From an uncultured Rickettsiales bacterium (GTDB lineage: Bacteria > Myxococcota_A > UBA796 > UBA9615 > CAYRNR01), in assembly GCA_964558555.1 (NCBI GenBank), contig CAZLEO010000008.1, forward strand, positions 61-64,060: a stretch of DNA of 64,000 nt, in the 5' to 3' direction. A program made the translations under genes and the position numbers. The notes below the pieces were generated by a model. That model made no database searches, was not told where the DNA came from, and was given only the letters and a program-made list of their open reading frames with translations. Positions 6,843 to 24,428 of the stretch are shown piece by piece. Within the stretch, counting starts at the first letter, position 1, and the number at the start of each line of letters is the position of its first letter.

Positions 6843-8090
6843 TCACGCCGCCCGGCGTACGGAGGCCGGCAGCGCCTCGGGCAGGTCCACCGCCTCGCCG
6901 AACCACGTGGGATCGGACGGCCGCAGGCCGGCGTCGCGGGCGAGCTGCTCGACGATGCGCATGTTGTCCATGTCGATGTCGCCGGTGAGCCTCAGACCCT
7001 GCAGCGTGCGGGCGAGCTCGGGGCGGGTGGCGAGCGCCCAGCCCAGCGCGAGGCCCTCGGAGCCGCACGCGAAGAGGTGGTGGGGCGGCAGGGGAAGGGG
7101 GAAGCCGCCGAAGCCGCGGTGCAGGTGATCCGACGAGAGGATGGACAGCTCGGCGGCGACCGTGGGGGCGCGCCGGGCCACGTCGCGGGCCAGGTTGTTG
7201 GGCTGGGAGGCGTCGCCCCACAGGGAGCCGTCCGGGCACAGCTGGTCGGCGCGGACGAGCTCTCCGGGGTGGCTGGTGCACAGGGCGCCCAGGCGCACCT
7301 CGGGGAGCATGTCGGTGAAGCAGGGGAACTCGTCGCGGCCGTCCCACGACGCCAGGTCCACGTCCAGACCCTGCAGGCGTAGCTCGGCGCGCAGGCGGCG
7401 GATCTTGGCGCTGGTGCGACCCACCGCGACCAGGCCTCCGTCGTGGTCTGCGTACCAGCGGACGAAGGCGCGTCCGATGATGCCTGTGGCGCCGACCACG
7501 GCCAGGCGCTCGCCGCGCATGTCGTAGCGGTCGATCAGCCGCTCGAGCTGCCGGCAGCCGGCCAGGGCGCTGAGGCTGTCGCCGTGGGAGACGATGACCG
7601 TGCGCAGCCGCGGGCACGCCCAGCCGAACAGACCGCCCAGCGCAGCGAACATCGTGCGGACGTCCTCGCCGTCGTGGGTCAGCGGCGACGTGTACGCCCC
7701 CAGCACGACCACGTCGGCGCCGCGCACCATCACGGCCCACAGGCACGCCGCCATCACCCGCAGCTGGGTCAGCCGCGGGTGGGCCTTCATCTGGTCGGCC
7801 ACCATCATCACGAAGTGGGTGTGGAAGCGGACCTGGCCGCGGTAGACGTCGCGTCCGGCGAGGAACGAAGACAGACCGCACAGCGGCAGCAGCCACAAGA
7901 CGGTGAACCGCAGCGCCGCCGTGGCCGCGCGATGCAGGCCCGGCCGGTGCGCCTTCCAGCGCCTCAGCGCCGGCAGCAGGATGGCGAAGTCGGCGTCGCG
8001 CCGCATGTTCACGATGAAGGCCACGGTGGTCCGGGGGTCGCTGTGCATCGTCGTTCCTCCCTCGCTCGGTTCACCCAGGGAGGTTTGCAT
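6843..8090 (-). CDS. NAD(P)-dependent oxidoreductase related to cyanobacterial acyl-ACP reductase (AAR) and the shikimate-dehydrogenase-like family. It has an N-terminal hydrophobic extension.
   Basis: LAVVGATGIIGRAFVRWY aligns with AAR's VAVVGATGDIGSAVCRWL. GCRQLERL aligns with AAR's ICRQVEAA. VVLGAYTSPL aligns with AAR's SALGGFTSI. The true start may lie downstream of 8090. Confidence 0.5.
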   Translation of the reverse strand: MQTSLGEPSEGGTTMHSDPRTTVAFIVNMRRDADFAILLPALRRWKAHRPGLHRAATAALRFTVLWLLPLCGLSSFLAGRDVYRGQVRFHTHFVMMVADQMKAHPRLTQLRVMAACLWAVMVRGADVVVLGAYTSPLTHDGEDVRTMFAALGGLFGWACPRLRTVIVSHGDSLSALAGCRQLERLIDRYDMRGERLAVVGATGIIGRAFVRWYADHDGGLVAVGRTSAKIRRLRAELRLQGLDVDLASWDGRDEFPCFTDMLPEVRLGALCTSHPGELVRADQLCPDGSLWGDASQPNNLARDVARRAPTVAAELSILSSDHLHRGFGGFPLPLPPHHLFACGSEGLALGWALATRPELARTLQGLRLTGDIDMDNMRIVEQLARDAGLRPSDPTWFGEAVDLPEALPASVRRAA

Positions 8091-8254
8091 CGGGCGTGCC
8101 AGTGTCGCCGACCGCGGCCTTTATGTAGTGAAATCAGGAAGTTACAGATGGTGCCCCGTCGGCGCGGGCGGGCGGGGTTGTCGGGCGCACATTACACCCT
8201 GGAAAGTGGTTGTCGTGGGTACAAATGGAGGTGTCGGCGTCGCGCCGGGGCCCC

Positions 8255-8821
8255 TCACTGCGCCGTGGTGCACGCCCCGTTGCGGCACTTGCCGCCGGCA
8301 CACTCGGAGTCGGAGTAGCAGCGCCCTCCAGCGGTGGTGCACTGGCCGTTGCGGCACTTGCCGCCGGCACACTCGGAGTCGGAGTAGCAGCGCCCACCGG
8401 CGGTGGTGCACTGGCCGTCGCGGCACTTGCCGCCGGCGCACTCGGAGTCGGAGTAACAACGGCCGCCAGCGGTGGTGCATTCGCCGTTACGGCACTTTCC
8501 ACCGGCGCACTCGGAGTCGGAGTAGCAGCGGCCGCCAGCGGTGGTGCATTCGCCGTTGCGGCACTTGCCGCCGGCGCATTCGGAGTCGGAGTAGCAGCGG
8601 CCTCCAGCGGTGGTGCACTCGCCGTTGCGGCACTTGCCGCCGGCGCATTCGGAGTCGGAGTAGCAGCGGCTCGGTGCGGGCTCGCACTTGCCCTGCTTGC
8701 AGCGCCCGTCATCGCAGTCTGCGTCCGTGGTGCAGGGTGGGGGATCGGCGGCGCGGGGCATTCCGGGGAGGAGGAGCACGGCCAGGAACAGGCCGGCGGC
8801 GAGGGTCCAGGGACATCTCAT
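8255..8821 (-). CDS. Secreted cysteine-rich repeat protein (Myxococcus-type Cys-rich repeat; 7 tandem 20-aa repeats).
   Basis: Signal peptide MRCPWTLAAGLFLAVLLLPG. GGGGAG Shine-Dalgarno sequence. Seven copies of GGRCYSDSECAGGKCRNGECTTA, encoded by 60-bp DNA repeats. Confidence 0.7.
   Translation of the reverse strand: MRCPWTLAAGLFLAVLLLPGMPRAADPPPCTTDADCDDGRCKQGKCEPAPSRCYSDSECAGGKCRNGECTTAGGRCYSDSECAGGKCRNGECTTAGGRCYSDSECAGGKCRNGECTTAGGRCYSDSECAGGKCRDGQCTTAGGRCYSDSECAGGKCRNGQCTTAGGRCYSDSECAGGKCRNGACTTAQ
8258..8665. repeat. Seven tandem 60-bp coding repeats inside the Cys-rich protein gene.
   Basis: The repeat unit is near-identical at the DNA level, so it is recently expanded or homogenised. 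Confidence 0.8.
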
Positions 8822-8882
8822 GGCGGTCTCCCCGGTCAGTGTACCGCGTCGCGCTGCCGGCGGGCGCAGACGCCCAGCCGTC

Positions 8883-9344
8883 CTACCAGCCGGGATCGCA
8901 GTCGGAGTTGCTGACCGTGCCCTCCAGGCGCCACATGGGCGCGCCGAAGAAGCAGCACAGCTCGTCGTCGAACTCGTCGAACTCGAACGTGGCGCTGTCG
9001 GGGCCATACGTGTCGCCGAAGTAGGTGTCCATGGACGACCAATCGATGTCTACGGTGCCGTCGTCGTGCGCGGTCCAGGTGCCCTTGTCGAGGAAGGTCC
9101 AGCCGTCGATCTCCGAGAACCCGTACATCCGGTTGTCGGCGCACAGGGTCCAGCCGACCTCCACGTACTCGCCGGACGCCAGCGTACCGGCGATGTACCA
9201 GGCGCCGACCACCGAGTTCTCGATGGACTCCTCCTCGTAGTATTCGCCCTCCTCGCCTTCGCCGCCTTCGGGGTGGGGGGGGCAGCCCAGGGCCAGGGTC
9301 AGGATGGAGCAAGCGATGAGGGTGATGAGAGTCTTGGGATGCAT
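8883..9344 (-). CDS. Hypothetical lipoprotein.
   Basis: MHPKTLITLIACSILTLALGC lipobox signal. GGAGG Shine-Dalgarno sequence. Acidic GEGEEGEYYEEE linker. Confidence 0.55.
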   Translation of the reverse strand: MHPKTLITLIACSILTLALGCPPHPEGGEGEEGEYYEEESIENSVVGAWYIAGTLASGEYVEVGWTLCADNRMYGFSEIDGWTFLDKGTWTAHDDGTVDIDWSSMDTYFGDTYGPDSATFEFDEFDDELCCFFGAPMWRLEGTVSNSDCDPGW

Positions 9345-9506
9345 GATGTGAACCTCCGGGGATTGTTGTGGCGACCTTCGATTGCCGCCTTCTGGTCCCT
9401 GGGTGCGGTGGGCCATCAGTCCGTCACAAGAAAGGCTGTCTTTTTTTTGGATCGAGCCGACGTGACCCGTTCGTGGGGCGGGCCGGAGGGGGCGGAGGGC
9501 GGTGAG

Positions 9507-12500
9507 TTACCGCTTGCAGGGGTGGTCGGGTGCGGGATCGGACACGACTGGACCCCCGTCTCGCCAGACCACCGGGACGCTGGACCAGACGTCCTCGACG
9601 ACGTCGCAGTACGGGCGTTCGAAGGTCCGCAGATCCACGATCTGGGCGTCGCCGAGCTCGGTGGCGGCGTGCAAAGTCGGGCCGTCGATCCGCAGGTGGG
9701 TGACCGCGCCGTGTAGCTTCTCGGTGTGGAGCCGAGCGCCGTCTCGGAGGCTCCACAATCCGAGGGTCCCGTTGCCGAAGCCGGCCACGAGGGTGTCCAT
9801 CGGTCCCGTGCGCAGGGAGGTCACGGGGCTGGAGGGCAGGTCCTCCAGCTCCAGAGTCGGGCCGTGGGCGGAGGCTCCCGACGTGCGCACCGCGATCGCG
9901 CCGTCCCGATAGCCCTGGACGCTCGTCCCGTCCACCCGATGCACCGCGGTCAGCCCCGTGCCGACGTCCCACTGCGAGAGCTGGGCCCCGTCGGTGCCCA
10001 GGAGGTGGGCGCGGTCGTCTGCGATGGCCAGGACCCCCTCGGGATCCCCGGAGATCGCCGAGACCCCGGACAGCGCCCTGGTCCAGCGGCCATCGAGGGA
10101 CAGCGTGTGCACCTCGCCGGCGGCGTCGAGGACCGCGCAGCCGCCCGCGTGTGCCACCAGCGCGGTGGCCGGAGGAGCCCGGTCGTCCGCATGGGGGCGA
10201 TCGGCGGCGGTGTCCCAGATCCACAGGCGTCCGTCCTCCGAGTAGGAACAGACGTGAGAGGCGTGGGACGCCGCGAGCACTGCGTCGGACTGGACGTGGT
10301 CGCGCCAGGCCGCGCTGGGGGGCGCGGAGCCGGGCTCGTCGGGGCGCTGCCAGCCGCGGTGGGTCAGCAGCTCGACCGGGGAGTCCATCATCAGCCGGGT
10401 CCACCAGGCCGGTCGGCCGTCCTCGGTGTGCCACAGGCGGACGGTGCCCTCGTCTCCGGCGGTCGCCGTCCAGTCGCCGTCGGGGCTGAATGCGAGGTCG
10501 ACCACGTCGCGCAGGTGCCCCCGCATGATCGTGGACTCCGATCCGTCGAGCGGCACGACCGCCGCGGTCCCGTCCCCGCAGGCCACGCCCACGCGCTGGT
10601 CGTCGGGGTGGTAGGTCACGGTCCAGTTGACGTGCGGTAGGCCGGTGTCGGCGCGCAGCTCGACGCGACCGTCGCCGTGAGTGTCGAGGATGCTCAGCAC
10701 GTCCCCTTCTCCGCTCACGGCCAGGTGAGAGCCGTCCTCGCTGAACTCCACGTGCACGGGCCAGGGGCCCACGTCCACGGCGCGCATGTGCCGGCCTCCG
10801 TCGATCCGCCAGAGGTGCACCTTTCCGTCGGTCGCCGCGCCGGCGAGGAGGCGCCCGTCCGGACTGACGTCGATCCCCCAGACTCCCGCCCCGCCCGTAT
10901 CCAGTGAGAGCCCCCGCTCGAACGCCGGGAGGCTCCACTGGTGGATCTCTCCAGACCACCCGCTGGAGTACAGCGTGTCACCGCCATCGGCGAAGCGGAC
11001 GTCGTACGCGCCCGACTCCCGCGCGGGGGACCGGGCGAGGAGTTCGCCGGAGTCGAGGTCCCACAGGTACACCACGCCGTCGAGGCCGGCGGCCACGACC
11101 CTGCGGCCCGTCGGGTCGACTCGCACGCGCGCGAAGCCGTCCTCCGGACCCGCGAGACTGCGCAGCTGTTCGCCGGTTTCCACGTCCCAGATCCGCACCG
11201 TTCCGTCGTAGCTCGACGAGAGCAGCCATCGGCCGTCCGCGGAGAAGGCCACGCCGTCGACCGTGCTGTCGTGGCCGCGGGCCGTGGTCGGCGCGGGTGT
11301 ACGGTCCAGGTCCCACAGCCGCACGGTCTGGTCCCGACCGCTCAGCGACGCGACGTGGCGGCCGTCCGGCGCGAAGACGACGCGCCGAATCCAGCCGTCG
11401 TGGCCCGCCACCGTGCGCCGGAGCTCGCCGGTGGTGACGTCCCAGATGTGGATGGCCCGGTCCTGGCCGCCCGTGGCCAGCTCGCGGCCGTCCGGCGAGA
11501 ACGACACCCCCCACAGGATGTCCGTGTGGCCCTCCAGATCGAGGCGCAGTTCCCCGGTCTGGGGGTTCCAGAGCTTGACGACATGGTCGCGGCCCAGGGA
11601 GGCGAGCTGCTCGCCGTCGGGGCTGAACCGGACCATGTGGATGCGCTGGGAATGTCCTTCGAGCGCGCGGATCTGGGCGCCGGTGGCCGCATCCCACAGG
11701 CGCACGGTGGCGTCCGAGCTGGCCGTGGCGATCCAGCGCCCGCGGGGGTCGAAGTCCACCGTGTGCGCGATGTCCTCGTGACCGACGAGATCCAGCCGCG
11801 CCTCGCCCGTGTCCGTGTGGAAGATCCGCGCGCGCTCGGACCAGCCGACGACCCCCAAGGACGCGCCGTCAGCGGAGAACCGCAGGTCGTTGATCTCGCC
11901 GAGCTCGGTGTCCACGGTGCGTGTGTCGCCGCCGGCGAGGTCGCGCAGGATGACGGTGCCCAGGCTCGTCCCGGACGCCAGCCAACGACCGTCCGGAGAG
12001 TAGGCGACGGCCATGTACAGCGCGTCGATGTCGCGCAGGATCTCCGACTGGCCGGAGGAGACGTCGAAGACCTGCACTGCGCCGTCGGCGCGGCACACGG
12101 CGACGGAACCCCCGTCCGGTGAGAACGCCAGGTCGTATGGGGCCGCCGGCAGCTCGTGATGCCAGACGAGGGGCTGTCGGCTCAGGCTCCACCACAGCGC
12201 TCGGGCCGTGGCCGAGTCACGGGTCTCCAGGGCGTTTCGCAGCCTGGCGCGGGCTTCCAGGAGGTCGCCACGCAGGTTCGCCGTCCGGGCGCCCTCGAGC
12301 ATGGCCGTGGCCTGACCCTCCTGGGCCAGGTCCCGCTGGCGGGCCGTGCGGTGATTCATCCATCCCAGCACGGCGGCGAGCGCGATCAGCGCGGCGAACC
12401 CAGCCACCAGGAGGCTCCGCCGTCGTCTCACACGCGCCCGCTCCTGGCGGCTGCCGACCACGAGGAACTCCATCGCCACGTGGGGCAGGCCGGACATCCG

Positions 12501-15107
12501 CCGTGCCCGCCGGTCGGCGTCGCGGAGGGCGTCCCCGGTCCAGACCTCGCTTGCCAGACGCCCGCGCCTCGCCCAGAGCTGGGCGGCCTGCGTCAGCTCG
12601 CTCGCGAACGCCCGGTCCGCGTGGCTCTCGTCGAGCCAGCGACGGAGCCGATCCCACTCTCCGACGAGGGACTCGTGGACCAGCTCGAGGGTGGCCTTCT
12701 CGTCCACGGATTCCTGTGCGCCGTCGCCACCTTCGGTCGCTACGCCATCGCCCCGGCTCCCCATCGATCGCTGGACGAGGACCAGTCTGCCCGTGACGAG
12801 CCGAACGAGCACGCCGCCAGCCTCCTCGGGTAGGTCCGCGAGCAGGTCGGAGCGAGTGACGACCCTTCTTGTCCCGTCGGGCCGCACCAGTCGCAGGAGG
12901 ATGTCCCGCGCCCACCCCAGCTGTTCTCCGTGCAGGCCGGCGAGGACGGCGTCGGCGTGGTGTGCCAGCGCGCCGGCCATGCCGCCCATGGACTCGTACT
13001 CACTGCGCAGCAACAGCCGAGCCTGGGTGTCGCGGTGGAGCCACAGGTGCTTGCCCACGACCTGTAGCAGCGGCAGCGCCGCGGCCTCGCCTCGGACGGC
13101 GTCGACCATCTCACCGACCAGGGCCGGGTCGTCGTAGGCATAGCCCGCGAGTTCGACGGGTCGGATGAGGATCTCCCGCAACCCCGCAGAGCCCGGAGGC
13201 CGTATCACAACCACCCGCGCCATCGCCGCCCGCGCGGCGGGGCCGATGGCGACGCGGGCGAGGAAGTCGTCGCGCAAGGTCGCGATCATCCGCACGGGGC
13301 CGTCGGGATCGTCGGCGGCGAGACAGATCGCCTCCATGAACACCCGGCGCTCGCGCTCGTCGTCCACCAGCGTGCACAGCTCCTCGAGCTGATCCACGAA
13401 CAACAGCACGCGGACCGGTCGGTCGTCCCCGGCGGCGGCTCCGAACGGGTCGCGAGTGGGCTGCGATCGGCCGGCGAACTCGCTCAGGCGCAACGCCAGC
13501 CTCGATGGGGATTCGTGAAGATCGCGGGCGAGCTCGGCGCGTAGCGCATCCACCTCCCCTGGAGTCGGCCGCCTGTGCGGCGTTGCCGGTCCGAGCTCTC
13601 CTTCGGTCGGCGGAATGCTCGAGCGGCTCGAACTCAGCGTCCACGTGCGTTCGTCCCCGGTCAGCAGCCGCTCGGCCAACGAACGCATCGGATCGCGCCC
13701 GGGCCGGAGCTGCAGCACGATCCAGCGACCCTGGTCCCGCAGCTTGGGGATGATCCCCGCCTGGACGAAAGAGCTCTTGCCGGATCCCGAGGCCCCCAGA
13801 ACGGCAATCGTCGACTCCTCGCGGAGACGCTCGAGGAGGGAGGCGATCTCCGCGTTCCTGCCGAAGAAGCGTTCAGCGTCCTTCTCCACGCAGGGCAGCA
13901 GCCCCCGGAAGGGGGGCTCCTCGACGGAGCGTCCCGTTCGCGCCACGGCGGCGAACTGCGCCAGTGACTCGGCGAGCTCGGAGATCGCGGGCCGTCGCCG
14001 GGGATCCCGGTCCATGCAGCGAGCCACGGTCTGGGCCAGCTGGGAGGGGAGCCCTTCCTCGTCCAGAGGAGCGAAGGGCTTGCGGGTGACCCGCATGGCC
14101 ATGGTCAGCCCGGGCATCCCCGCGAGAGGGTGCTCGCCGGCCAGCAGCTCGTACAGGATCATCCCCAACGCCCACACGTCCGTCGCGCTGCTGACGTCCT
14201 CTTCGAGCCACTGTTCCGGCGCCATGTACGGCGGCGTGCCCCGCAGACCCCGGGCGTGGGACTCGAACGTGCCCATCAGGTTGTCGTCCGTGGGCAGGGC
14301 CTGGGATCGGGCGTGCGGTTCCACACGCCCGGACTCCTCCACCGGCACGAGTTTGGCCAGACCGAAGTCCAGCACGCGCACGGTCCCGTCCTTGACGAGC
14401 ATCACGTTGTCGGGCTTGAGGTCCCGGTGGAGGATGCGGTGACGGTGCGCCTCGACCAGCGCCTCGGCGATGGCGAGCCCGATGCGGAGGATGTCTCGCA
14501 CGCCGACGCGCTCCTCGGTCATCCTCCTGCGCAGGGTCATCCCCTCCAGGTACTCGAGCGCGACGTATGGATTCTCTCCGTACTCACCCACCGCATGGAT
14601 GGTGACGATGTTGGGGTGATTGAATCTTGCGGTTGCACGCGCCTCGAATATGAACCTCTCGATGGCGCGCCGCGAGCCCATGTCCCGAGGCCGCAGGACT
14701 TTCAGCGCCACCTTTCGGCCGAGTCTCGTGTCCCGAGCCAGGTAGACCTCGCCCATGCCACCGCCGCCGAGTCGCCGCAGGATCTGGAGGTGGTCGACCC
14801 GCACACCGGGCTCCAGGGGCTGCGTCGGCGCTCCGGGTGGATCGAGTGCCCTCTCTCGGGCCGAGCCGCCACTGTCCACCTCGGTGTCGAAGGTGCCGGA
14901 CGCCTGCAGGCTCGCCGATAGGGACTGGCCGACGCTCCACAACAGGGTCCGCGCGTCGTGGATACCTGGGACGCTCTCCGGTTCCAGCTCCATCGCCTCG
15001 CGCAGCAACCGAGCACCCACCCGGCACTTCGGGCACGCGGAGAGGTGAGCCTGCACGGCCTCGGCCGGGGTGGGGTCGAGGAGCTCCTCGTCCGTACAGT
15101 GGCGCAT
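9507..15107 (-). CDS. Giant signalling protein of ~1867 aa. It has an N-terminal anti-sigma (zf-HC2) domain, a Ser/Thr protein kinase, a NACHT/AAA+ STAND ATPase, a transmembrane-like segment and ~14 WD40 repeats.
   Basis: N-terminus MRHCTDEELL...HLSACPKCR. Kinase motifs GGGGMGEVY, VALK, HRDLKPDN, DFGLAK. P-loop GASGSGKSS. Repeated WD motifs (LWD/IWD/VWD). The supplied 2391-aa ORF extends through the ECF gene in another frame; the real start, with signal-free ATG at 15105-15107, is placed 5 nt after the sigma stop. Confidence 0.8.
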   Translation of the reverse strand: MRHCTDEELLDPTPAEAVQAHLSACPKCRVGARLLREAMELEPESVPGIHDARTLLWSVGQSLSASLQASGTFDTEVDSGGSARERALDPPGAPTQPLEPGVRVDHLQILRRLGGGGMGEVYLARDTRLGRKVALKVLRPRDMGSRRAIERFIFEARATARFNHPNIVTIHAVGEYGENPYVALEYLEGMTLRRRMTEERVGVRDILRIGLAIAEALVEAHRHRILHRDLKPDNVMLVKDGTVRVLDFGLAKLVPVEESGRVEPHARSQALPTDDNLMGTFESHARGLRGTPPYMAPEQWLEEDVSSATDVWALGMILYELLAGEHPLAGMPGLTMAMRVTRKPFAPLDEEGLPSQLAQTVARCMDRDPRRRPAISELAESLAQFAAVARTGRSVEEPPFRGLLPCVEKDAERFFGRNAEIASLLERLREESTIAVLGASGSGKSSFVQAGIIPKLRDQGRWIVLQLRPGRDPMRSLAERLLTGDERTWTLSSSRSSIPPTEGELGPATPHRRPTPGEVDALRAELARDLHESPSRLALRLSEFAGRSQPTRDPFGAAAGDDRPVRVLLFVDQLEELCTLVDDERERRVFMEAICLAADDPDGPVRMIATLRDDFLARVAIGPAARAAMARVVVIRPPGSAGLREILIRPVELAGYAYDDPALVGEMVDAVRGEAAALPLLQVVGKHLWLHRDTQARLLLRSEYESMGGMAGALAHHADAVLAGLHGEQLGWARDILLRLVRPDGTRRVVTRSDLLADLPEEAGGVLVRLVTGRLVLVQRSMGSRGDGVATEGGDGAQESVDEKATLELVHESLVGEWDRLRRWLDESHADRAFASELTQAAQLWARRGRLASEVWTGDALRDADRRARRMSGLPHVAMEFLVVGSRQERARVRRRRSLLVAGFAALIALAAVLGWMNHRTARQRDLAQEGQATAMLEGARTANLRGDLLEARARLRNALETRDSATARALWWSLSRQPLVWHHELPAAPYDLAFSPDGGSVAVCRADGAVQVFDVSSGQSEILRDIDALYMAVAYSPDGRWLASGTSLGTVILRDLAGGDTRTVDTELGEINDLRFSADGASLGVVGWSERARIFHTDTGEARLDLVGHEDIAHTVDFDPRGRWIATASSDATVRLWDAATGAQIRALEGHSQRIHMVRFSPDGEQLASLGRDHVVKLWNPQTGELRLDLEGHTDILWGVSFSPDGRELATGGQDRAIHIWDVTTGELRRTVAGHDGWIRRVVFAPDGRHVASLSGRDQTVRLWDLDRTPAPTTARGHDSTVDGVAFSADGRWLLSSSYDGTVRIWDVETGEQLRSLAGPEDGFARVRVDPTGRRVVAAGLDGVVYLWDLDSGELLARSPARESGAYDVRFADGGDTLYSSGWSGEIHQWSLPAFERGLSLDTGGAGVWGIDVSPDGRLLAGAATDGKVHLWRIDGGRHMRAVDVGPWPVHVEFSEDGSHLAVSGEGDVLSILDTHGDGRVELRADTGLPHVNWTVTYHPDDQRVGVACGDGTAAVVPLDGSESTIMRGHLRDVVDLAFSPDGDWTATAGDEGTVRLWHTEDGRPAWWTRLMMDSPVELLTHRGWQRPDEPGSAPPSAAWRDHVQSDAVLAASHASHVCSYSEDGRLWIWDTAADRPHADDRAPPATALVAHAGGCAVLDAAGEVHTLSLDGRWTRALSGVSAISGDPEGVLAIADDRAHLLGTDGAQLSQWDVGTGLTAVHRVDGTSVQGYRDGAIAVRTSGASAHGPTLELEDLPSSPVTSLRTGPMDTLVAGFGNGTLGLWSLRDGARLHTEKLHGAVTHLRIDGPTLHAATELGDAQIVDLRTFERPYCDVVEDVWSSVPVVWRDGGPVVSDPAPDHPCKR

Positions 15108-15112
15108 GCCGC

Positions 15113-15748
15113 TCACCGGGTCTCCCACACGAAGGACGTGCCGTGGCCCAGCTGGGCCAGCCGGGCTTTCAGCTCGGCCTTGAGCTTGCGCCGGCAGCGC
15201 TGGAGCAGGCCGCGCGCGCCGGACGCGGTGGTCAGCCCGAGCAGGTCCGTGATCCGGTCCTGGGGCATCTGTTCGACGTAGCGCAGATACACCGCCTCTT
15301 GCTCCTGCTCCTCCAGCACGGCGGCAGCGGCGCTCCTGAGCAGCTCTTCGCGCTCTTGCCGCCCAAGAGCCGAGAGCGCCCCCTTCTCGTCGGAGGTCGG
15401 GTCGAGCAGACCGTCGACGGAAAGCAGGTCCTGCTTGCGCCGGAAAGCGCCATAGCAAACCCTCTTGGCGATGCCGTACAGCCACGTGCTGAAGGCGGAG
15501 TCCCCCCGGAACGTCGGGAGCCTGCGCCAGGCGGTCAGCAACGTCTCCTGGGCCAGGTCGCGCGCCTTCTCGGGGTCGCCGGCGAAGCGGTAGCAGATGG
15601 CGTAGACGCGGTCCTGATGGCGGGCGAAGAGCTGCTCGAGGTCGGCGGAGAGGGATGCAGAGGCGGACCCCTCGCCCTGCGCAACGAGCCGCACGCGCTT
15701 CAGCAGCGCCTCCTCGTCGCGAGCCTTGCGGTCCCCTGGCCTGTTCAT
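15113..15748 (-). CDS. ECF (sigma-70 family) RNA polymerase sigma factor.
   Basis: Region 2 (YAICYRFAGDPEKARDLAQETLLTAWRRL) and region 4 (EAVYLRYVEQMPQDRITDLLGLT). Confidence 0.85.
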   Translation of the reverse strand: MNRPGDRKARDEEALLKRVRLVAQGEGSASASLSADLEQLFARHQDRVYAICYRFAGDPEKARDLAQETLLTAWRRLPTFRGDSAFSTWLYGIAKRVCYGAFRRKQDLLSVDGLLDPTSDEKGALSALGRQEREELLRSAAAAVLEEQEQEAVYLRYVEQMPQDRITDLLGLTTASGARGLLQRCRRKLKAELKARLAQLGHGTSFVWETR

Positions 15749-15930
15749 GGCGATCCCTGCCCCACTCTCGAGCGCCTCGCCGCGAGCCTAGCACAGCCTC
15801 GGCGCCCCGCGAATGTACGCGCGAGGATGCCATCGCCCACGTGACGGCCACGACGGGTACAATCTGTGGTTGAGTGCCCGGATTGATGCGGCACCGGGGG
15901 CCGAAGCATCGTCCTGGCAAAGGAGGGAAC

Positions 15931-17211
15931 GTGAGACGCTCGATCCGACGCTCTGCGGTGTTGCGGCCGGCTCGACTCCTGATCGCCCTCGCGGTGCTGG
16001 GGACGGGCGGCACTGCCGCGGCCGGAGAGGCGTGCGGCATCTTCGAGCTGGCTGCCAGCGGCTCCAAGGCGACCAAGAACGTGGTGGTGAACCTGACCTC
16101 GCTGCTGGCCTCCGAGGTGGAGGCCACCGGCAAGTGCAGCTCCATCGCCATGTTCGCCGCAGAGGACTTCGAGCAGGGCTGCGGCGCGGACCCCGCGTGC
16201 GTGACGGAGTTCGCCGAGTACGACGAGCTGGACCTGATGATCACCGGCACGGTGCGGTTCGAGGCCGACGGGACACGGGTCAAGCTGCGGCTGCTGGATG
16301 CGGCCAGGGGCCGGTTCGTCAGCACCCTCGAGCGCGAGGCCGAGGGCGATCCCGACCGCCTCATGGAGCGCATGGCCGAGTTCGCGGCCGATCTGATGAG
16401 GGACCAGCGGGCCGTCGTGGTGGCAGAGGAGCCGAGCGAGCTGGACCTGATCGGCGACCTGGATCTGGTGGACGACCTCGACGACCCAGGCAGCGCCGAG
16501 GACGACTCCATCGTGGTGGAAGCCGAGGGGGCGGACTGGGAGGACGTGCCCATCGACGAGGTGGTCCGGCCCGTGGAGGAGGGGCCCATCGAGCTGGAGG
16601 TGTCGACCCTCGAGGAACGTGAGCGGATTGCCGTGGAGGAGGGGGATCTCGCCGACGCCGAGGACATGCCAGGGGCCTCCACCCTGCTCGGTCATGACTC
16701 CACGGGCCCCGAGCTGCTGTTCCGCATCGATCCCCGCCTGGGCATCAAGGCCTTTGGCGGGGTCGCGTTCTGGCAGGAGCCACACGGCGAGTTCGGGCTG
16801 GACTTCTCCATACACGTCAAGCCCCAGGCCTTCTTCGATGTGGAGGTCGGCACCTGGATCGGCACCAAGCATCAGCCGGGCAGCGATGACCTGTGGACCT
16901 ACGCGCTGTTGCCGTTCTCCATCGGGTTCGGCGCCAAGGGGCAGCGGCTGCCCCTGGTCCATCCCTACGTGGTCGGGGCGGCGATGGGTATCGTGTACTT
17001 CGTCAGCCCCAACAACGGCCTTCCCCAGCTGGCCTTCGGTGGCTGCGTCAAGGGCGGCATCGACCTGATGATCAAGCAGCGTTTCGGTCTGTTCGTCGAG
17101 GGGAGCGTCGGCGGGGTCTACGCGGGACACATCACGTCCGTGGTGGACGAGGACTACTGGCCGGGGCACGTCGTGTTGTCGCTGAACACCGGCGTGATCC
17201 TGCAGTTGTGA
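15931..17211 (+). CDS. Secreted hypothetical protein. The C-terminal part is beta-rich and may be an outer-membrane barrel.
   Basis: AGGAGGG then a GTG start. Signal peptide RRSAVLRPARLLIALAVLGTGGTAAAG. Acidic linker. Alternating hydrophobic beta strands at the C-terminus. Confidence 0.5.
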   Translation: MRRSIRRSAVLRPARLLIALAVLGTGGTAAAGEACGIFELAASGSKATKNVVVNLTSLLASEVEATGKCSSIAMFAAEDFEQGCGADPACVTEFAEYDELDLMITGTVRFEADGTRVKLRLLDAARGRFVSTLEREAEGDPDRLMERMAEFAADLMRDQRAVVVAEEPSELDLIGDLDLVDDLDDPGSAEDDSIVVEAEGADWEDVPIDEVVRPVEEGPIELEVSTLEERERIAVEEGDLADAEDMPGASTLLGHDSTGPELLFRIDPRLGIKAFGGVAFWQEPHGEFGLDFSIHVKPQAFFDVEVGTWIGTKHQPGSDDLWTYALLPFSIGFGAKGQRLPLVHPYVVGAAMGIVYFVSPNNGLPQLAFGGCVKGGIDLMIKQRFGLFVEGSVGGVYAGHITSVVDEDYWPGHVVLSLNTGVILQL

Positions 17212-17222
17212 GGAGGCCGGGC

Positions 17223-17768
17223 ATGACGCGTACAGTCTTTTCGGTGGTGCCGCTGCTCCTGGCCGTGCCCTTCTGGACGGTGGGGTGCATCGACATGATG
17301 GGGTTCCCGCCGGCGGAGTTCTACGAGGATCCGCTGGAAGCAGAAGGGAGCTTCTTCGAGGATTCGGGGGAGCCCGACGAGTGCGAGATCCCCGAGACCG
17401 AGCCCAACGGTCTGGACGATTCGTACGAGTTCGACACGATCGGTGCCCTGCTCGAGGGACAGAGCGCGACGGTGTGTGGGCGGATCTCCAGCACGGGAGT
17501 GGACGGCGAGGGGTACTTCGACGGGGACTACGACTACTACCTCTTCGAGCTGCTGCATCAGGAACGCGTGACGGTGGAGCTGCGATGGGAGGGCAGCACG
17601 GGGTTCGAGATGATCCTCCTCTCCTGGTCCGGCAGCTACTCGGAACAGACCTGGGGCGACGAGCCGCTTCGGATCAGTGACACCGTGCCTGCGGGGTACT
17701 ACGCGGTTCTGGTGGTGGCCGGGAGCGGCTCGGCGACCGACTACCAGCTGCTCCTCGAGGTGGATTGA
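17223..17768 (+). CDS. Lipoprotein with a PPC (pre-peptidase C-terminal)-like beta-sandwich domain.
   Basis: Lipobox LLLAVPFWTVGC with a GGAGG Shine-Dalgarno sequence. DGDYDYYLFEL...YYAVLVVAGSGSATDYQLLL resembles PPC/collagenase-type domains. Confidence 0.5.
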   Translation: MTRTVFSVVPLLLAVPFWTVGCIDMMGFPPAEFYEDPLEAEGSFFEDSGEPDECEIPETEPNGLDDSYEFDTIGALLEGQSATVCGRISSTGVDGEGYFDGDYDYYLFELLHQERVTVELRWEGSTGFEMILLSWSGSYSEQTWGDEPLRISDTVPAGYYAVLVVAGSGSATDYQLLLEVD

Positions 17769-17769
17769 C

Positions 17770-18891
17770 TCAGGAGTCTTCCTCGTCTTCCTCGTCTTCC
17801 TCGCCGCCGCCTTGTTCGCAATCGGCCGGATCGGGACAGTACAGGAAGTAGCCGATCGCGCGCTGATTCAACTCGGTGTAGTAGTCCAGCACCCAGAGGT
17901 GGATGCGCGGTCCGATGGCCCTCGCCGCGACCATCTGGGCGTCCCCGTCGAGCGTGGTGTTGAGGGGAAGGAAGCCGCCGTGTTGCCGGTTCCACGCGTC
18001 GTCGCCGGGCCCCTTGGACGCCAGCCCTACGTACGAATCACTCACCGAGCGCACGTTGCCCTGGTCGATCCACTCGCCGAAGCCCACGTAGAACATGTAG
18101 TCGTGGTCGTCCAGTTCGACGATGGAGATGTCCACGAAACCCTCGTCGTCCCACTCGCCGTCGGAGCCTGCCTTGAACACGCGGGAAGCATCGACGGCCC
18201 AGTTCTCGGGATCGTCGGTGGAGAGCCGATACACGTTGATTGACCCCTCCTCGACGCTCCCCCCGAGGTAGGCATCGTAGTTGCTCGCGCCGATGTTCAG
18301 CGCCAGGGGCCACGCGTAGTCGACGCCCTCGTAGGTCAGGCCGAAGTCGATGACTGGATTGTTGGGGGACAGCTCCCAGTTCAACCCGTCGTGGGAGGCG
18401 GCCAGCCCGGCGCCGAAGAACGACTTGTCCTCGTCGATACCGCCGTAGAGCATGACGTAGCCGTCCATGTTCACGTCCCAGGCCACCTCCAGGGCCTGGA
18501 CCTTGCCCCCGTCCCAGTCGCTGTTCGAGCGCGAGGGCCAGCCCGGGTTGTCCGGGTGGGGGGTCCACTCGGTCCCGCTGTCGCTGATGGCGTAGCCCAT
18601 GTCGAAGTCACCGCCTTCACTGGGGGAGCCCGCGTACCACAGCTGGTAGAACGGGTGTCCGGCCACCTCGGTGTGCCCGAAGGTGCTGAACGACAGGGTC
18701 TCGGCCCAGTCCTCGCCGGTGGTGGTGAACACGGGATTGCAGTCGTAGCGGTACAGCTCGTCGATGGCCGTGGGCACGAAGGGACACTCGGTGACCTCGT
18801 CGGGGTGCACGTTCACCGCGTGGAGCTGATACTCGCTGCAGGCTGCCAGGCCCAGGCAGACCAGGGTGAGCGGTAGGACGGCCCTACTCAT
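17770..18891 (-). CDS. Lipoprotein, probably a beta-propeller (GH32/43/130-like or BNR-like fold); function unknown.
   Basis: Lipobox LTLVCLGLAAC. Repeated W/Y-G-G-x-D blades. Acidic C-terminal tail. 8-nt overlap (ATGAGTAG) with the upstream gene. Confidence 0.45.
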   Translation of the reverse strand: MSRAVLPLTLVCLGLAACSEYQLHAVNVHPDEVTECPFVPTAIDELYRYDCNPVFTTTGEDWAETLSFSTFGHTEVAGHPFYQLWYAGSPSEGGDFDMGYAISDSGTEWTPHPDNPGWPSRSNSDWDGGKVQALEVAWDVNMDGYVMLYGGIDEDKSFFGAGLAASHDGLNWELSPNNPVIDFGLTYEGVDYAWPLALNIGASNYDAYLGGSVEEGSINVYRLSTDDPENWAVDASRVFKAGSDGEWDDEGFVDISIVELDDHDYMFYVGFGEWIDQGNVRSVSDSYVGLASKGPGDDAWNRQHGGFLPLNTTLDGDAQMVAARAIGPRIHLWVLDYYTELNQRAIGYFLYCPDPADCEQGGGEEDEEDEEDS

Positions 18892-19204
18892 CGTCGTCCC
18901 CCTCTTCGTCGACGGCGTGGTCGGAGCCGCCGTAGGCCCTGGCGCATTGCAGGATCACGAATGCGTCGCATTCGGCGTCGAGCACGCACTCGGTCAGGGG
19001 AGCCACGGCCGCGCCCCGCTCGGCCTTGTCGTACATGCAGCCGTCGTAGCAGGACCCGGGCTGGTCCGCGGGGAAGGCCTCGAACTGGCATTCGTCCACC
19101 AGCTCGTTGCACAGGTCCGTGCAGAGACCTTCCGAGTCCACGTTACAGCCCAGTGGGGTCGAGAGAAGCCCCAGTACCCCCAGGAGAAACAACGTCCGTC
19201 GCAT
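18884..19204 (-). CDS. Small Cys-rich lipoprotein (106 aa).
   Basis: MRRTLFLLGVLGLLSTPLGC. GGAGGG Shine-Dalgarno sequence. 10 Cys residues in 80 aa. Confidence 0.5.
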   Translation of the reverse strand: MRRTLFLLGVLGLLSTPLGCNVDSEGLCTDLCNELVDECQFEAFPADQPGSCYDGCMYDKAERGAAVAPLTECVLDAECDAFVILQCARAYGGSDHAVDEEGDDDE

Positions 19205-19352
19205 CCTCGTGCGCCCTCCAGGGGAGCCATCGTACGGTCGACCCGGGGGGGCGTCAACGTGGCGCGCCCGCCCCCCGTGCGTGGCTTGGACTATGATCGT
19301 GAGTCGTCCCATCCCTGGGACGACCCACTGCGTCGGGAACGGGGGTGATTGG

Positions 19353-20288
19353 GTGAGATCACGACGGTGGATCGAACGCACGGTGTGGGTGATCGCGTGC
19401 TGTCTCGCCGCGGCGTCCTCGCCTGCATGGGCCGAGGACGTGCCGCTGAAGATCAAGTTCTCGTCGCCGCGAGGTGGATCGTGGAATGGGCACCGCCTCG
19501 CCGTGGCCTTCGACGACCGGCGGTCGTCGCACCTCGGCGGCGGCACGGCCGACGTGATGGGCGTGGTGGGTGAGAACAAGGAAGTGACGCTGGTTCTCAA
19601 GCGGCTCACCGTCGAGGACGTGTTCTACGAACTGACCGAGGATGCGCTGAATGCCGCGGGCTTTCGTGCAGTCCAGGGGCGAGAAGACGGCCTTCCCACG
19701 CTGCTGGTGGTCCTGGAGGACCTCGAGGTGGAGGGCTTCACCGAGTACACGGTGAGCCTGTACCTGGAGTTCGAGCTGCTCTCGTCCGGGGACGAAGAGC
19801 TGCTGTGGGACGGCTCGGCAGCAGCCGAAGGAGAGGTGCGGCTCCAGTGGGGGGTCGGAGAGCTGTGGAAGGGCTACCGGGGGGCGTTCGAGGAGGCCCT
19901 GGACATCATGACTCGCCACTTCGAGAGCTCGGAGTTCCTCGAAGGACTGCCCGTCCAGAGCGAGCCTGCTGCCGTCGTCGAGGACGTCGTCGAGGACGTC
20001 GTCGAGGAGGCGCCGGTGGTGACCCCGCCCGTTGAACCCGTCGACACTCCGCTCCTGGCGGTGGTGCAGACGTACTACGCCTACCAGGGCACGACGATGA
20101 CCGACGATCAGCGCGAGGCGGGCGAGGACGCCGTGCGTCAGCTCCTGGCAGAGGGATTCGTCGCAGCCGGGCTGGAGAGGGCCGTGGTCCAGGTCCACCG
20201 GGAGATCCCCGGAGCCAGGACCATGGACTTCGAGCGCATCGTCCCCGCCTACGTGCGGGCGATGGGAGACACGTTCAAGGGACCGTAG
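19353..20288 (+). CDS. Secreted protein; paralogue P1 carrying an unrecognised ~70-aa C-terminal YY-x-QG...REIPGA domain.
   Basis: GTG start after GGGGG. Signal VRSRRWIERTVWVIACCLAAASSPAWA. The C-terminal domain is shared with P2 and P3. Confidence 0.5.
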   Translation: MRSRRWIERTVWVIACCLAAASSPAWAEDVPLKIKFSSPRGGSWNGHRLAVAFDDRRSSHLGGGTADVMGVVGENKEVTLVLKRLTVEDVFYELTEDALNAAGFRAVQGREDGLPTLLVVLEDLEVEGFTEYTVSLYLEFELLSSGDEELLWDGSAAAEGEVRLQWGVGELWKGYRGAFEEALDIMTRHFESSEFLEGLPVQSEPAAVVEDVVEDVVEEAPVVTPPVEPVDTPLLAVVQTYYAYQGTTMTDDQREAGEDAVRQLLAEGFVAAGLERAVVQVHREIPGARTMDFERIVPAYVRAMGDTFKGP

Positions 20289-23587: not shown

Positions 23588-23714
23588 GGCTCTCCCCCTT
23601 CGAGGTCAGAATCTTGCCACGTTCCCTACGCTTGTCGGGGTAAAAAAACGGGTGAGACGCGGATCCGGCGATGGGCGTGGGCCTCGTCGGAACGGCGGCT
23701 CTCGGCGGGGCAGG

Positions 23715-23801
23715 TCAGCCGCCGGCCGGCGCGCAGACCATCGGGTTGATCACGAACACGTACAGCGCCGCGAGGGCGATCAGGCCGGCGAGGCCGGCCA
23801 T
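23715..23801 (-). CDS. Candidate 28-aa hydrophobic small protein (MAGLAGLIALAALYVFVINPMVCAPAGG).
   Basis: The ATG is 18 nt downstream of the ICMT stop. GAAGGAG lies 12 nt upstream. One predicted TM helix. Confidence 0.3.
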   Translation of the reverse strand: MAGLAGLIALAALYVFVINPMVCAPAGG

Positions 23802-23818
23802 GTAGAGGCCGAACTCCT

Positions 23819-24418
23819 TCACTTGCGGCTCCTCTCGGCGAAGTAGCGTCGGAAGCGGCTGAACCTGGGGATGAACATCGGCACCTCCTTGCGGTAGCGC
23901 TCGTAGGCCTCGCCCAGGTTCTGCAGGCAGTAACGCTCCTGGATGGCGACGTTGGTGATGTACGAGTACAGCAGCAGGATGGGGATGAAGATCGCCAGGA
24001 ATGCCAGCGACCGCATCAGGAAGCCCAGACCGATCACGCCGATGAGCTTGCCGATCACGGAGGGGTGGCGGATCCAGGAGTAGATGCCGGTGTCGACGAG
24101 GTTGGTGGTGTAGCCCATGTGGGAGCCGGGGCTGCCGGCGCCCTTGAGGTAGAGGTAGCCGTAGGAGTACCACACGACAAAGCCGCCGAGGGCCCAGCAG
24201 CCGGCGCAGATCACCACGTTCCAGGGCAAGCCCACGGTGGGGGCCCAGCCCCAGGACTGGTCCAGGCGCTGGGCGAACCACGCCAGCAAGGTGGCCGCGG
24301 GCACGAGCACGAAGACGTGGACCGCCATGTTGCCGTACAGCTCCTTGTGGCGGAGCGTGGCGAAGATCTCCCAGACAGTGGGTTCGCGGTCCACGGGCTG
24401 TGGGGATTCGTTGGTCAT
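23819..24418 (-). CDS. Membrane methyltransferase of the ICMT / phospholipid methyltransferase family (SrsB-like).
   Basis: Five TM helices. The C-terminal EYERYRKEVPMFIPR motif is typical of isoprenylcysteine carboxyl methyltransferase-family enzymes. Confidence 0.7.
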   Translation of the reverse strand: MTNESPQPVDREPTVWEIFATLRHKELYGNMAVHVFVLVPAATLLAWFAQRLDQSWGWAPTVGLPWNVVICAGCWALGGFVVWYSYGYLYLKGAGSPGSHMGYTTNLVDTGIYSWIRHPSVIGKLIGVIGLGFLMRSLAFLAIFIPILLLYSYITNVAIQERYCLQNLGEAYERYRKEVPMFIPRFSRFRRYFAERSRK

Positions 24419-24428
24419 GAATGGGACA

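Follow-up and report, generated by a model that had tools for sequence, protein, structure and literature searches.

An ECF sigma factor encoded beside a kinase-STAND-WD40 protein that carries an anti-sigma-like zinc module

Analysis of a 64,000-nt stretch of DNA from an uncultured Rickettsiales bacterium (hereafter, the window) pointed to a two-gene locus in which an ECF sigma factor is followed by a large multidomain protein whose N-terminus is supported as a ZAS-type anti-sigma-like module. The same protein contains a Hanks-type Ser/Thr kinase, a STAND NTPase, a transmembrane (TM) helix, and an array of WD40 repeats. We consider it reasonably probable that the two genes form a self-contained sigma/anti-sigma module in which a receptor kinase incorporates the anti-sigma factor. 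Signalling by ECF sigma factors and signalling by Hanks kinases are usually viewed as distinct systems.

The gene pair and its junction

Both genes lie on the minus strand, with the following features of the sigma factor and its junction to the downstream gene.

15113..15748, minus: ECF sigma factor gene (211 aa, coordinates including the stop; Sigma70_r2 1.5e-20, TIGR02937 1.6e-25)
15431..15631, minus: sigma region 2, residues 40-106 (Pfam; alignment to E. coli RpoE; family alignment)
15179..15322, minus: sigma region 4, residues 143-190 (family signature SGARGLLQRCRRKL)
15131..15151, minus: conserved C-terminal sigma tail L-G-H-G-T-S-F, residues 200-206 (alignment A1)
9507..15116, minus: multidomain anti-sigma/kinase/STAND/WD40 gene (probable start GTG 15116-15114; alternative ATG 15107)

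By content, the first gene encodes an ECF (group 4) sigma-70 factor, with sigma2 and sigma4 domains alone in ~200 aa. The TIGR02937 sigma70-ECF model scored 89.6 bits (cutoff, 42.9), the Pfam match to region 4 was weak and below cutoff but present, and the best PDB relatives were ECF sigmas without exception. NCBIfam returned no specific equivalog, the best entry being PRK05602 (96 bits versus a cutoff of 208). The sigma family is tight, with ~210-aa members sharing 50-83% identity and 158 cluster representatives at E<=1e-30. Region 2.2 reads KARDLAQE where DxxDxxQE is expected (K61-A62-R63-D64 in the window), the family pattern at the DxxD position being xAx[DE]; Ser and Thr are absent from the site that is phosphorylated in ECF43. 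In ECF43 sigmas, uncharged QTTA or STTA replaces the acidic DxxD in region 2.2, and phosphorylation of Thr in this region switches the factor on (PMC8999054, PMC13147305). The view of the original prediction that kinase-linked ECFs are mechanistically unresolved is thus outdated for ECF43. Since region 2.2 of the window sigma lacks Ser/Thr, an ECF43-like phospho-switch was ruled out, and KARD in place of DxxD further indicates that this factor is a kind of kinase-linked ECF other than ECF43. At the other end of the protein, G201, H202, G203, S205, and F206 of the tail are invariant or near-invariant (alignment A1; consensus LGHG(S/T)SF), a signature present in ~60 of the 75 best-scoring representatives whose C-termini were inspected.

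The coordinates originally assigned to the sigma and the large gene, as well as the 5-nt distance between them, hold: the sigma stop TGA (15115-15113) is followed by 5 nt and then by the ATG at 15107-15105 of an ORF ending at 9507. This ORF (9507-15107) stands as predicted, whereas its product has 1866 residues rather than 1867, the latter being the number of codons with the stop; initiation at GTG 15116 would yield 1869 aa (MSGMRHC...). In the orthologs L051, L052, and L053, the equivalent position holds no ATG; their start codon, GTG or TTG, overlaps with the stop of the sigma gene (GTGA/TTGA). The window has the same GTGA overlap, preceded 5 nt upstream by GGGAG, which makes GTG 15116-15114 the likely true start of the large gene. 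The zinc module lies inside the protein with either start, and the gene callers' models of the large gene take it in. Within codons 1-45, 26-31 differ between the window and each ortholog, and 9-16 of those are synonymous, a share indicating that the N-terminal segment is translated and under purifying selection. These synonymous changes and the overlapping ortholog starts exclude the objection, raised along with the original prediction, that the gene might start far downstream and leave the anti-sigma segment untranslated.

The zinc module and its linkage to the sigma factor

Two features of the large protein precede the kinase domain.

14901..15107, minus: ZAS-like anti-sigma module, residues 1-69 (zf-HC2 match, invariant ligands, PDB profile matches, AF2)
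14871..14927, minus: Ser/Thr-rich patch SLSASLQASGTFDTEVDS, residues 61-79, at and just past helix IV (kept in orthologs L051-L053)

The proposed resemblance of the N-terminus to a zf-HC2 anti-sigma domain was borne out by a search with residues 1-45 alone, which matched PF13490 at 23.7 bits (gathering cutoff, 22.2; E 5e-5), over the HxxxCxxC half of the profile only. The putative zinc ligands H3, H21, C25, and C28, together with R29, are invariant in 25 homologous modules (alignment A2). Seven of these 25 family members (~28%) match zf-HC2, and no other family was matched. Among 177,635 distinct PDB sequences, the module profile found only four matches, all to ECF anti-sigma factors (ChrR twice, RslA, and RsiW); each single match is marginal (E 0.055-1.2), and the alignment to ChrR reaches through the helix IV region. 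AF2 predicted helices at 6-10, 16-24, and 26-40 with pLDDT 83-90 (residues 1-40) and a fourth helix at 49-69. For residues 1-271 of the natural fusion P0297, the picture was mixed, with a low pLDDT (49-71) at the zinc knuckle and up to 94 at helix IV. A search of 5.8 billion proteins with the 71-column profile returned a single significant match, P0241, the module being too short for a database of that size. These results support a ZAS-type anti-sigma-like module at the N-terminus of the large protein, one of a divergent HP-type subfamily. The Ser/Thr-rich patch is conserved in L051-L053, whereas the linker that follows varies; the patch might act as a phospho-acceptor.

Comparison across genomes links the module to the sigma factor. 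Of the 35 genome loci that encode a homologous sigma, 32 show the same module on an adjoining kinase protein, and most of the module-kinase genes in those loci begin at a 4-nt overlap with the sigma stop. Dozens of uncultured marine myxobacteria-like genomes contain the sigma-module-kinase pairing. All 32 loci have the module attached to a kinase, with two different orders of domains among them, and none has it by itself. Furthermore, sigma, module, and kinase are fused in one ORF in L041, L042, and five more cluster representatives (880-1172 aa), and several fused members have a degenerate kinase catalytic loop (e.g., HQDLRPAH in L042). As negative controls, no sigma gene lies next to the three closest kinase-nSTAND1(-WD40) paralogs that lack the module, and the module is absent from four other kinases within the same loci. 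P0013 and P0060 are kinase-nSTAND1 proteins with a classic Cys-type zf-HC2, yet they have no sigma neighbour; a zf-HC2 on a kinase therefore need not, on its own, signify a cis-encoded sigma. Neighbourhood, start/stop overlap, natural fusions, and negative controls support a specific tie between the module and the adjacent ECF sigma, and the predicted sigma-binding role of the module is well supported by this comparison.

Domain architecture, proposed receptor mechanism, and alternatives

Downstream of the module and the patch, the large protein comprises the following regions.

13968..14786, minus: Hanks-type Ser/Thr kinase domain, residues 108-380 (Pkinase 1e-43)
12558..13913, minus: nSTAND1 STAND NTPase, residues 399-850 (PF20703 2.8e-92)
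12357..12413, minus: single transmembrane helix, residues 899-917 (Kyte-Doolittle mean 2.41 over 19 aa; RVRRRRS just before)
10428..12155, minus: ~14 WD40 blades, residues ~985-1560 (WD40 PF00400 1.3e-77 and many beta-propeller families)
9510..10427, minus: degenerate C-terminal beta-propeller-like region, residues ~1561-1866 (weak WD40, PQQ_2/BamB-like matches)

The domain order originally read from this protein was largely confirmed, with its NTPase renamed. The eukaryotic-like kinase has all five Hanks motifs intact (G-loop 114, VALK 133-136, HRDLKPDN 227-234, DFG 247, and APE 296) and looks active. The P-loop ATPase had been labelled NACHT-type, but it is an nSTAND1 domain, from a STAND clade distinct from NACHT. 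PF20703 scored 310.7 bits against a cutoff of 27.1 and was covered from positions 1 to 376 of 379, with a Walker A motif (GASGSGKS) at 438 and a Walker B motif (LLFVDQ) at 568; NACHT was absent from the 25 best Pfam families of the large protein, among which nSTAND1 was the top NTPase family. The TM-like segment is a strong helix whose N-side flank has a net charge of +6, compared with +1 for the C-side flank. An equivalent helix occurs in the same place in L033 (KD 2.48) and in the module-less paralogs L048 (2.75) and L049 (2.94), and this conserved position suggests that the WD40 sensor is probably outside the cytoplasm. A TM helix between the STAND NTPase and the repeat sensor is unusual among STAND proteins. 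Its conservation probably makes the protein a receptor-like anti-sigma factor rather than a cytosolic NLR. Pfam matches to WD40 and beta-propeller families run from about residue 990 onward. The ~14 WD40 repeats also hold, with a 42-residue period and a blade count that is enough for two seven-bladed propellers. The degenerate region beyond them (~300 aa) shares 35% identity with the C-terminus of the L033 protein. The NCBIfam PknD model matched the large protein partially (2.7e-43), below cutoff.

From these features we infer physical binding of the sigma by the module, the membrane topology, and every activation step of the following scheme. H3, H21, C25, and C28 would hold zinc in a class-I-type anti-sigma domain made up of the first ~70 residues. 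In the resting state, helices I-III and the fourth helix would bind the co-translated sigma and keep it inactive at the membrane. The kinase and nSTAND1 domains would be in the cytoplasm, connected by one TM helix to a ~950-residue WD40/propeller sensor outside. A signal at the propellers would induce clustering or rearrangement of the large protein, the STAND module would switch via nucleotide exchange and oligomerisation, and the kinase domains would then trans-activate. Phosphorylation of the Ser/Thr-rich patch, of the sigma tail GHG(S/T)SF, or of the two together would free the sigma for RNA polymerase. Sigma release driven by NTP-dependent oligomerisation or by a ligand on the WD40 array, as envisaged in the original prediction, is a hypothesis. 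There is precedent for the last step of the scheme in Mycobacterium tuberculosis, where the sigma is released once PknB has phosphorylated the ZAS anti-sigma factor, RshA or RseA (PMC8999054). A broader reading, which we put forward only tentatively, is that of a transmembrane NLR-like receptor with transcription rather than cell death as its output: binding of a ligand (possibly from prey, kin, or an invader) by extracytoplasmic WD40 propellers would trigger nSTAND1 oligomerisation on nucleotide exchange in the cytoplasm, kinase trans-activation, phosphorylation of the anti-sigma domain or the sigma tail, and release of a dedicated sigma. The whole sigma family, given its obligate module-plus-kinase partners and the natural fusions, would then be regulated by a mechanism of a new class, with the anti-sigma and Ser/Thr-kinase pathways of ECF control united in a single protein.

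Alternatively, the sigma could be phosphorylated directly, as in ECF43, with the zinc module serving as a docking domain that recruits it as a substrate, not as an inhibitor, and with a phosphorylated tail (S205 in GHGTSF) as the activating element. Such an arrangement would be in keeping with the residence of the module in a kinase-containing protein in 32 of 32 loci, never alone, and with a Ser-containing and (near-)invariant tail. Loss of the first acidic residue of DxxD (KARD) means that core binding might need help, and the published kinase-linked ECF groups act via sigma phosphorylation (PMC8999054, PMC13147305). However, the ECF43 switch itself is impossible in a region 2.2 without Ser/Thr, the module resembles inhibitory ZAS domains only among PDB entries, and the degenerate catalytic loops of several fused members, such as that of L042, argue for a catalysis-independent role of the module. 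We regard direct phosphorylation as unlikely.

Less probable still is that the module works as a redox or thiol ZAS switch like RsrA or RshA, in which oxidation of C25/C28 frees zinc and sigma while the kinase, STAND, and WD40 parts are unrelated or modulatory. The HxxxCxxC motif and the upstream His are invariant, and the ZAS proteins RshA and RseA sense oxidation (PMC8999054), but many others (ChrR, RslA, and RsiW) are not simple thiol switches. The consistent joining of module and kinase, in two domain orders, would be hard to explain if the kinase were irrelevant, and no thioredoxin or redox genes are conserved beside the sigma-kinase pair. Finally, the Cys/His pattern might be incidental, or the segment untranslated, with the sigma and the large gene merely adjacent. 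The zf-HC2 score is just 1.5 bits over threshold with half of the profile covered, and fold searches were uninformative. Nonetheless, the five residues invariant in 25 homologs, the linkage of module and sigma in 32 of 35 loci along with the existing fusions, the enrichment of synonymous substitutions in codons 1-45, and the ortholog starts overlapping the sigma stop already contradict this reading, which we deem highly improbable.

Known systems and locus surroundings

Class I ZAS proteins (ChrR, 2q1z/2z2s; RslA, 3hug; RsiW, 5wuq; and RsrA/RshA) share with the large protein the H/C-x(n)-H-x3-C-x2-C ligands and a gene directly downstream of an ECF sigma and translationally coupled to it. Their short helices I-III plus a fourth helix have predicted counterparts in the window module, and their usual TM helix and extracytoplasmic sensor have a probable counterpart in the TM helix and WD40 region. 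Unlike them, the window protein has a complete Hanks kinase and a STAND NTPase (~800 residues) between the putative anti-sigma domain and the TM helix, and sigma binding by its module is predicted. M. tuberculosis PknD, which signals to sigma-factor regulators, resembles the plan predicted for the window protein: a Hanks kinase linked through one TM helix to a beta-propeller sensor outside the cytoplasm. PknD differs from the window protein in having neither an anti-sigma domain nor a STAND NTPase, and in its NHL-type, not WD40, propeller.

In ECF43 systems (EcfP/PknT of Vibrio parahaemolyticus and EcfK/PknS of Xanthomonas citri), the ECF is also co-encoded with a receptor Hanks kinase, which has a TM helix and, outside the cytoplasm, a domain that varies (PMC8999054, PMC13147305). 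They lack an anti-sigma factor, whereas the window kinase carries an anti-sigma-like domain and the window sigma has KARD. The M. tuberculosis PknB-RshA/RseA pairs resemble the locus in that a Hanks kinase cooperates with a ZAS anti-sigma factor, but those are separate proteins from separate loci; in the one polypeptide of the window, phosphorylation, if any, would take place in cis or inside an oligomer. The nSTAND1 counter-invader systems (Kaur, Iyer, Burroughs, and Aravind 2021, PMC8195603) show the same layout of an N-terminal output domain (S/T/Y kinase among those listed), a central nSTAND1, and C-terminal repeats. That family is expanded in multicellular-type bacteria, and coupling to ECF sigma factors is described for some related systems (PMC8195603). 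The same source describes no anti-sigma N-terminal output and no TM helix between NTPase and repeats, and the window protein differs further in lacking a death or effector domain. In Myxococcus xanthus, DdvS/DdvA are an ECF sigma and a transmembrane ZAS anti-sigma factor that control a CBASS-CRISPR defence island (PMC11506125). The window pair, with its predicted sigma-holding membrane protein, resembles this myxobacterial one, in which a membrane-bound ZAS protein with a large C-terminus retains the ECF sigma. Unlike in that system, no defence genes flank the window pair. To our knowledge, DdvA has no kinase or STAND domain.

A literature search on ECF or anti-sigma factors with kinase, STAND, or WD40 domains found no description of an anti-sigma-kinase fusion, with an earlier mention being possible in Jogler 2012, Huang 2015, or the 2021 ECF classification supplements. 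According to the survey by Casas-Pastor et al., kinase-linked ECF groups are typically without anti-sigma factors (PMC7826278); in this sigma family, by contrast, the kinase itself carries an anti-sigma-like domain. The family makes it testable whether an anti-sigma factor is released by cis-phosphorylation, what the conserved sigma tail does, and whether a STAND switch gates a transcription factor across the membrane. As compact units of two genes, sensor and output, whose sensor domains are very diverse, such modules could also serve as orthogonal regulators.

As regards the surroundings of the pair, the 35 related loci contain no homolog of any of the eight window proteins that flank it, and a larger conserved operon was thus rejected. 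PADLOC matched the large protein to kinase-domain models only (mad6, PD-T4-6, PglW, and others; residues ~100-400) and gave no match for the sigma; these matches being generic to kinases, membership in an anti-phage defence system was also rejected. No sigma-70 consensus promoter or terminator was found in 9300-16100. One further feature precedes the sigma gene.

15749..15957, minus: intergenic region upstream of the sigma (CCGTCAC element at 15841-15847)

The combined TGTG and CCGTCAC(A) pattern has no further copy in the window, and neither a regulon nor an autoregulated promoter was defined. Across related loci, CGTCACA occurs in 8 of 39 sigma upstream regions (0.5 expected), with TGTG 14-16 nt upstream of it in about 9 loci. 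CCGTCAC(A) with TGTG upstream, a candidate promoter element at most, is enriched ahead of the sigma genes of about 10 loci, with a spacing that is not constant.

Architecture and start of the large protein

As originally predicted, an ECF sigma gene lies directly ahead of the gene for the large protein in the window (G+C ~70%), its TGA stop (15115-15113) being followed by 5 nt and then by ATG 15107-15105. Read from this ATG on the minus strand, the large ORF ends at 9507 and encodes 1866 residues, correcting the initial count of 1867. The Ser/Thr kinase, TM-like segment and ~14 WD40 repeats recognized in the first reading were borne out, and the ATPase then labeled NACHT-type proved to be nSTAND1, a STAND NTPase clade distinct from NACHT. 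Features of the two genes are as follows.

15748..15113, minus strand: ECF sigma gene, 211 aa (Sigma70_r2, 1.5e-20; TIGR02937 sigma70-ECF, 1.6e-25; weak region 4 match)
15131-15151, minus strand: sigma C-terminal tail L-G-H-G-(S/T)-S-F-x-R after region 4, with LGHG(S/T)SF at residues 200-206
Large protein, residues 108-380: Pkinase (Pfam), all motifs intact (G-loop 114, VALK 133, HRDLKPDN 227, DFG 247, APE 296)
Large protein, residues 399-850: nSTAND1 (Pfam, 2.8e-92), intact Walker A GASGSGKS 438 and Walker B LLFVDQ 568
Large protein, from ~residue 990: WD40 and beta-propeller families (Pfam)

The sole strongly hydrophobic stretch of the large protein is a helix at residues 899-917 (Kyte-Doolittle [KD] mean, 2.41), flanked by RVRRRRS on the N side and NHRTARQRD on the C side. 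The ~14 blades recur with a period of 42 residues over roughly 985-1560 and give way to ~300 residues of degenerate propeller. Because both enzyme domains depend on nucleotides of the cytoplasm and the N side of the helix carries the positive charge, an extracytoplasmic position is predicted for the WD40 region. We infer a layout in which a kinase and a STAND switch are inserted into the classical anti-sigma order of cytoplasmic anti-sigma domain, then TM helix, then external sensor. The full order of module, kinase, nSTAND1, TM helix, WD40 and C-terminal propeller recurs in three orthologs and in the related locus L033, whose nSTAND1 part is 43% identical and which has an arginine-flanked, strongly hydrophobic helix in the equivalent region between NTPase and WD40 repeats (KD, 2.48). 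Other family members combine module and kinase with C-terminal regions of quite different kinds, a single TM helix occurring in many. The closest paralogs (kinase-nSTAND1 and TM-WD40; L048, 4001-9430, and L049, 4001-9429) have neither zinc module nor sigma gene. In each, the coding sequence is split between two genes that adjoin or overlap, the first ending in or after nSTAND1 and the second opening shortly before the TM helix, which lies ahead of the repeats near the start of the WD40 gene (KD, 2.75 and 2.94); the split may reflect real two-gene systems or assembly frameshifts.

A true start downstream of the zinc motif, raised as an alternative in the original prediction, is contradicted by gene callers, ortholog start codons and synonymous codon changes. 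In five independent metagenome contigs with an identical sigma, the start chosen by gene callers was the ATG or a position a few codons ahead of it. In three orthologous loci, where the sigma is 76-83% identical and the large proteins measure 1870, 1872 and at least 1841 aa, no ATG stands at the window's position, and the gene starts at a GTG or TTG overlapping the sigma stop (GTGA/TTGA), an arrangement typical of translational coupling. Because the window has the same GTGA overlap, with GGGAG 5 nt upstream, its large gene likely starts at GTG 15116-15114, which would yield 1869 aa (MSGMRHC...). Among the first 45 codons, 26-31 differ from each ortholog and 9-16 of these differences are synonymous; the N-terminal segment is both translated and under constraint.

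A ZAS-like module linked to one sigma family

The zf-HC2-like character assigned earlier to this N-terminus held when residues 1-45 were searched alone (23.7 bits versus a Pfam gathering threshold of 22.2); the HxxxCxxC half was the one part of the model that matched. Alignment of 25 homologous modules from related loci revealed five invariant positions, H3, H21, C25, C28 and R29 in window numbering, within the consensus H-P-x(16-19)-H-L-x2-C-x2-C-R-V-E-x-R-L-L. The module shows the His/His/Cys/Cys ligand pattern seen in ChrR and other ZAS anti-sigma domains, in keeping with the ChrR alignment, which extends into the fourth-helix region. Seven of the 25 modules matched zf-HC2, and none of these seven matched any other Pfam family. 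A search of the module profile against all 177,635 distinct PDB sequences (E ≤ 10) returned four, ChrR (2q1z, 2z2s), RslA (3hug_B) and RsiW (5wuq_C), all of them ECF anti-sigma factors whose structures include the partner sigma. Each E value was marginal (0.055-1.2); despite this, we consider the restriction of the matches to ECF anti-sigma factors telling. Confidence in a predicted (AF2) model of a sigma-module-kinase fusion (P0297, residues 1-271) was ~90 for the sigma, 49-71 for the zinc knuckle and 94 for the helix IV equivalent.

Scanning one genome per species for sigma relatives (E ≤ 1e-22) yielded 35 loci, nearly all from Myxococcota, "Deltaproteobacteria" or mislabeled MAGs; two further matches with E near 1e-5 were left out. 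Onto these loci we mapped the domains seen in the window together with the module motif; the module was found inside a kinase-containing neighbor of the sigma in 32 of 35, arranged as follows.

20 loci: gene directly after sigma, mostly with a 4-nt overlap, module first and then kinase
L021, L027: downstream protein in the order kinase-module-P-loop NTPase
L030 3694-6174, L036 5211-7577, L038 3398-4912, L040 3377-7003, L045 3657-6071 (locus coordinates), minus strand: kinase-module, divergent from sigma
L015: module-kinase gene upstream of sigma
L020: module-kinase gene 5 kb downstream of sigma
L012: module-kinase gene, truncated
L041 2282-6139, L042 7998-11474: sigma, module and kinase-like domain in one ORF

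A hydrophobic-looking stretch begins just after the module in L036 and L045, and the L041 and L042 fusions contain a strongly hydrophobic helix (KD, about 2.5). Five further single-ORF fusions of 880-1172 aa (P0292, P0297, P0304, P0305 and P0341) were retrieved from 1.84 billion cluster representatives. Where a sigma is covalently tethered to its putative anti-sigma domain, it could act only through proteolysis or a conformational switch. No sigma neighbored the three closest kinase-nSTAND1(-WD40) paralogs devoid of the module, the module was absent from four other kinases in the same loci, and none of the eight flanking window genes was conserved in related loci; the pair of genes is itself the unit. 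A caveat is that no sigma adjoins two kinase-nSTAND1 proteins whose zf-HC2 is of the classic Cys type; the specific association is therefore one of this sigma family with the HP-type module.

Proposed release of the sigma and its precedents

The most economical model is that the module would sequester the sigma, that sensor input through the STAND module would activate the kinase, and that phosphorylation would then break the sigma-module complex; we infer every step beyond domain identity and genetic linkage. A kinase-like domain accompanies every module, arguing that the two act together, and degenerate catalytic loops in several fusions (e.g., HQDLRPAH in L042) argue for an additional role of the module, in binding and independent of catalysis. 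There are two candidate phospho-targets.

Large protein, residues 61-79: Ser/Thr-rich patch SLSASLQASGTFDTEVDS at the end of helix IV, kept in orthologs, which do not keep the linker after it
Sigma tail: GHG(S/T)SF, invariant

The sigma relatives form a tight family (~210 aa, 50-83% identity) with the region 4 signature SGARGLLQRCRRKL. Their L-G-H-G-(S/T)-S-F-x-R tail is almost invariant in every close homolog, more conserved than most of the sigma, and present in most of the top ~70 of 158 family representatives (E ≤ 1e-30; 1.84 billion cluster representatives searched). It is missing from the sigma-module-kinase fusions, and may be a phospho-acceptor or docking motif. The sigma2.2 motif DxxDxxQE, a core polymerase contact, reads KARDLAQE in the window sigma and xAx[DE]LxQ[DE] across the family, Ser/Thr being absent from both. 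For this reason the mechanism of ECF43, in which a Thr of QTTA/STTA is phosphorylated (PMC8999054, PMC13147305), was rejected as inapplicable here. A precedent, in trans, for a kinase acting on ZAS anti-sigma factors is the phosphorylation of RshA and RseA by PknB (PMC8999054). The parts are already known: ZAS anti-sigma domains, Hanks receptor kinases, nSTAND1 NTPases, described with N-terminal kinase outputs alongside ECF-coupled conflict systems (PMC8195603), and kinase-linked ECF groups (PMC7826278). Our literature search, with some relevant sources beyond reach, found no published description of a Hanks kinase that carries a fused anti-sigma domain, and PADLOC returned generic kinase matches only. 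The pair belongs to a coherent, so far uncharacterized ECF/anti-sigma-kinase family, of which the window protein is the most elaborate member.

Upstream element and surrounding genes

A CCGTCAC(A) element at window positions 15841-15847 is enriched upstream of sigma genes (CGTCACA in 8 of 39 sigma upstream regions versus 0.5 expected) and may be an ECF-type autoregulated promoter. It also precedes the sigma in L012, L013, L018, L024, L028, L029, L033, L051 and L053, often with TGTG 14-16 nt upstream at variable spacing. No second copy of this type occurs in the window, and a search for the promoter and regulon of the sigma defined none.

The proteins encoded by all genes of the flanks 6843-9344 and 15958-20288 have signal-peptide- or lipoprotein-like N-termini and lack a recorded Pfam match, and none is conserved beside sigma homologs elsewhere; two of the proteins have acidic tails (...EEDEEDEEDS and ...EEGDDDE), and one flanking protein is Cys-rich. 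Farther away, 22235-25940 (minus strand) encodes a B12-binding radical SAM enzyme, a PEMT-like methyltransferase, a 35-aa ORF and a MopE-like copper-binding protein. This cluster is conserved in the orthologous locus L051 and might be peptide-modifying (RiPP-like) or copper-related.
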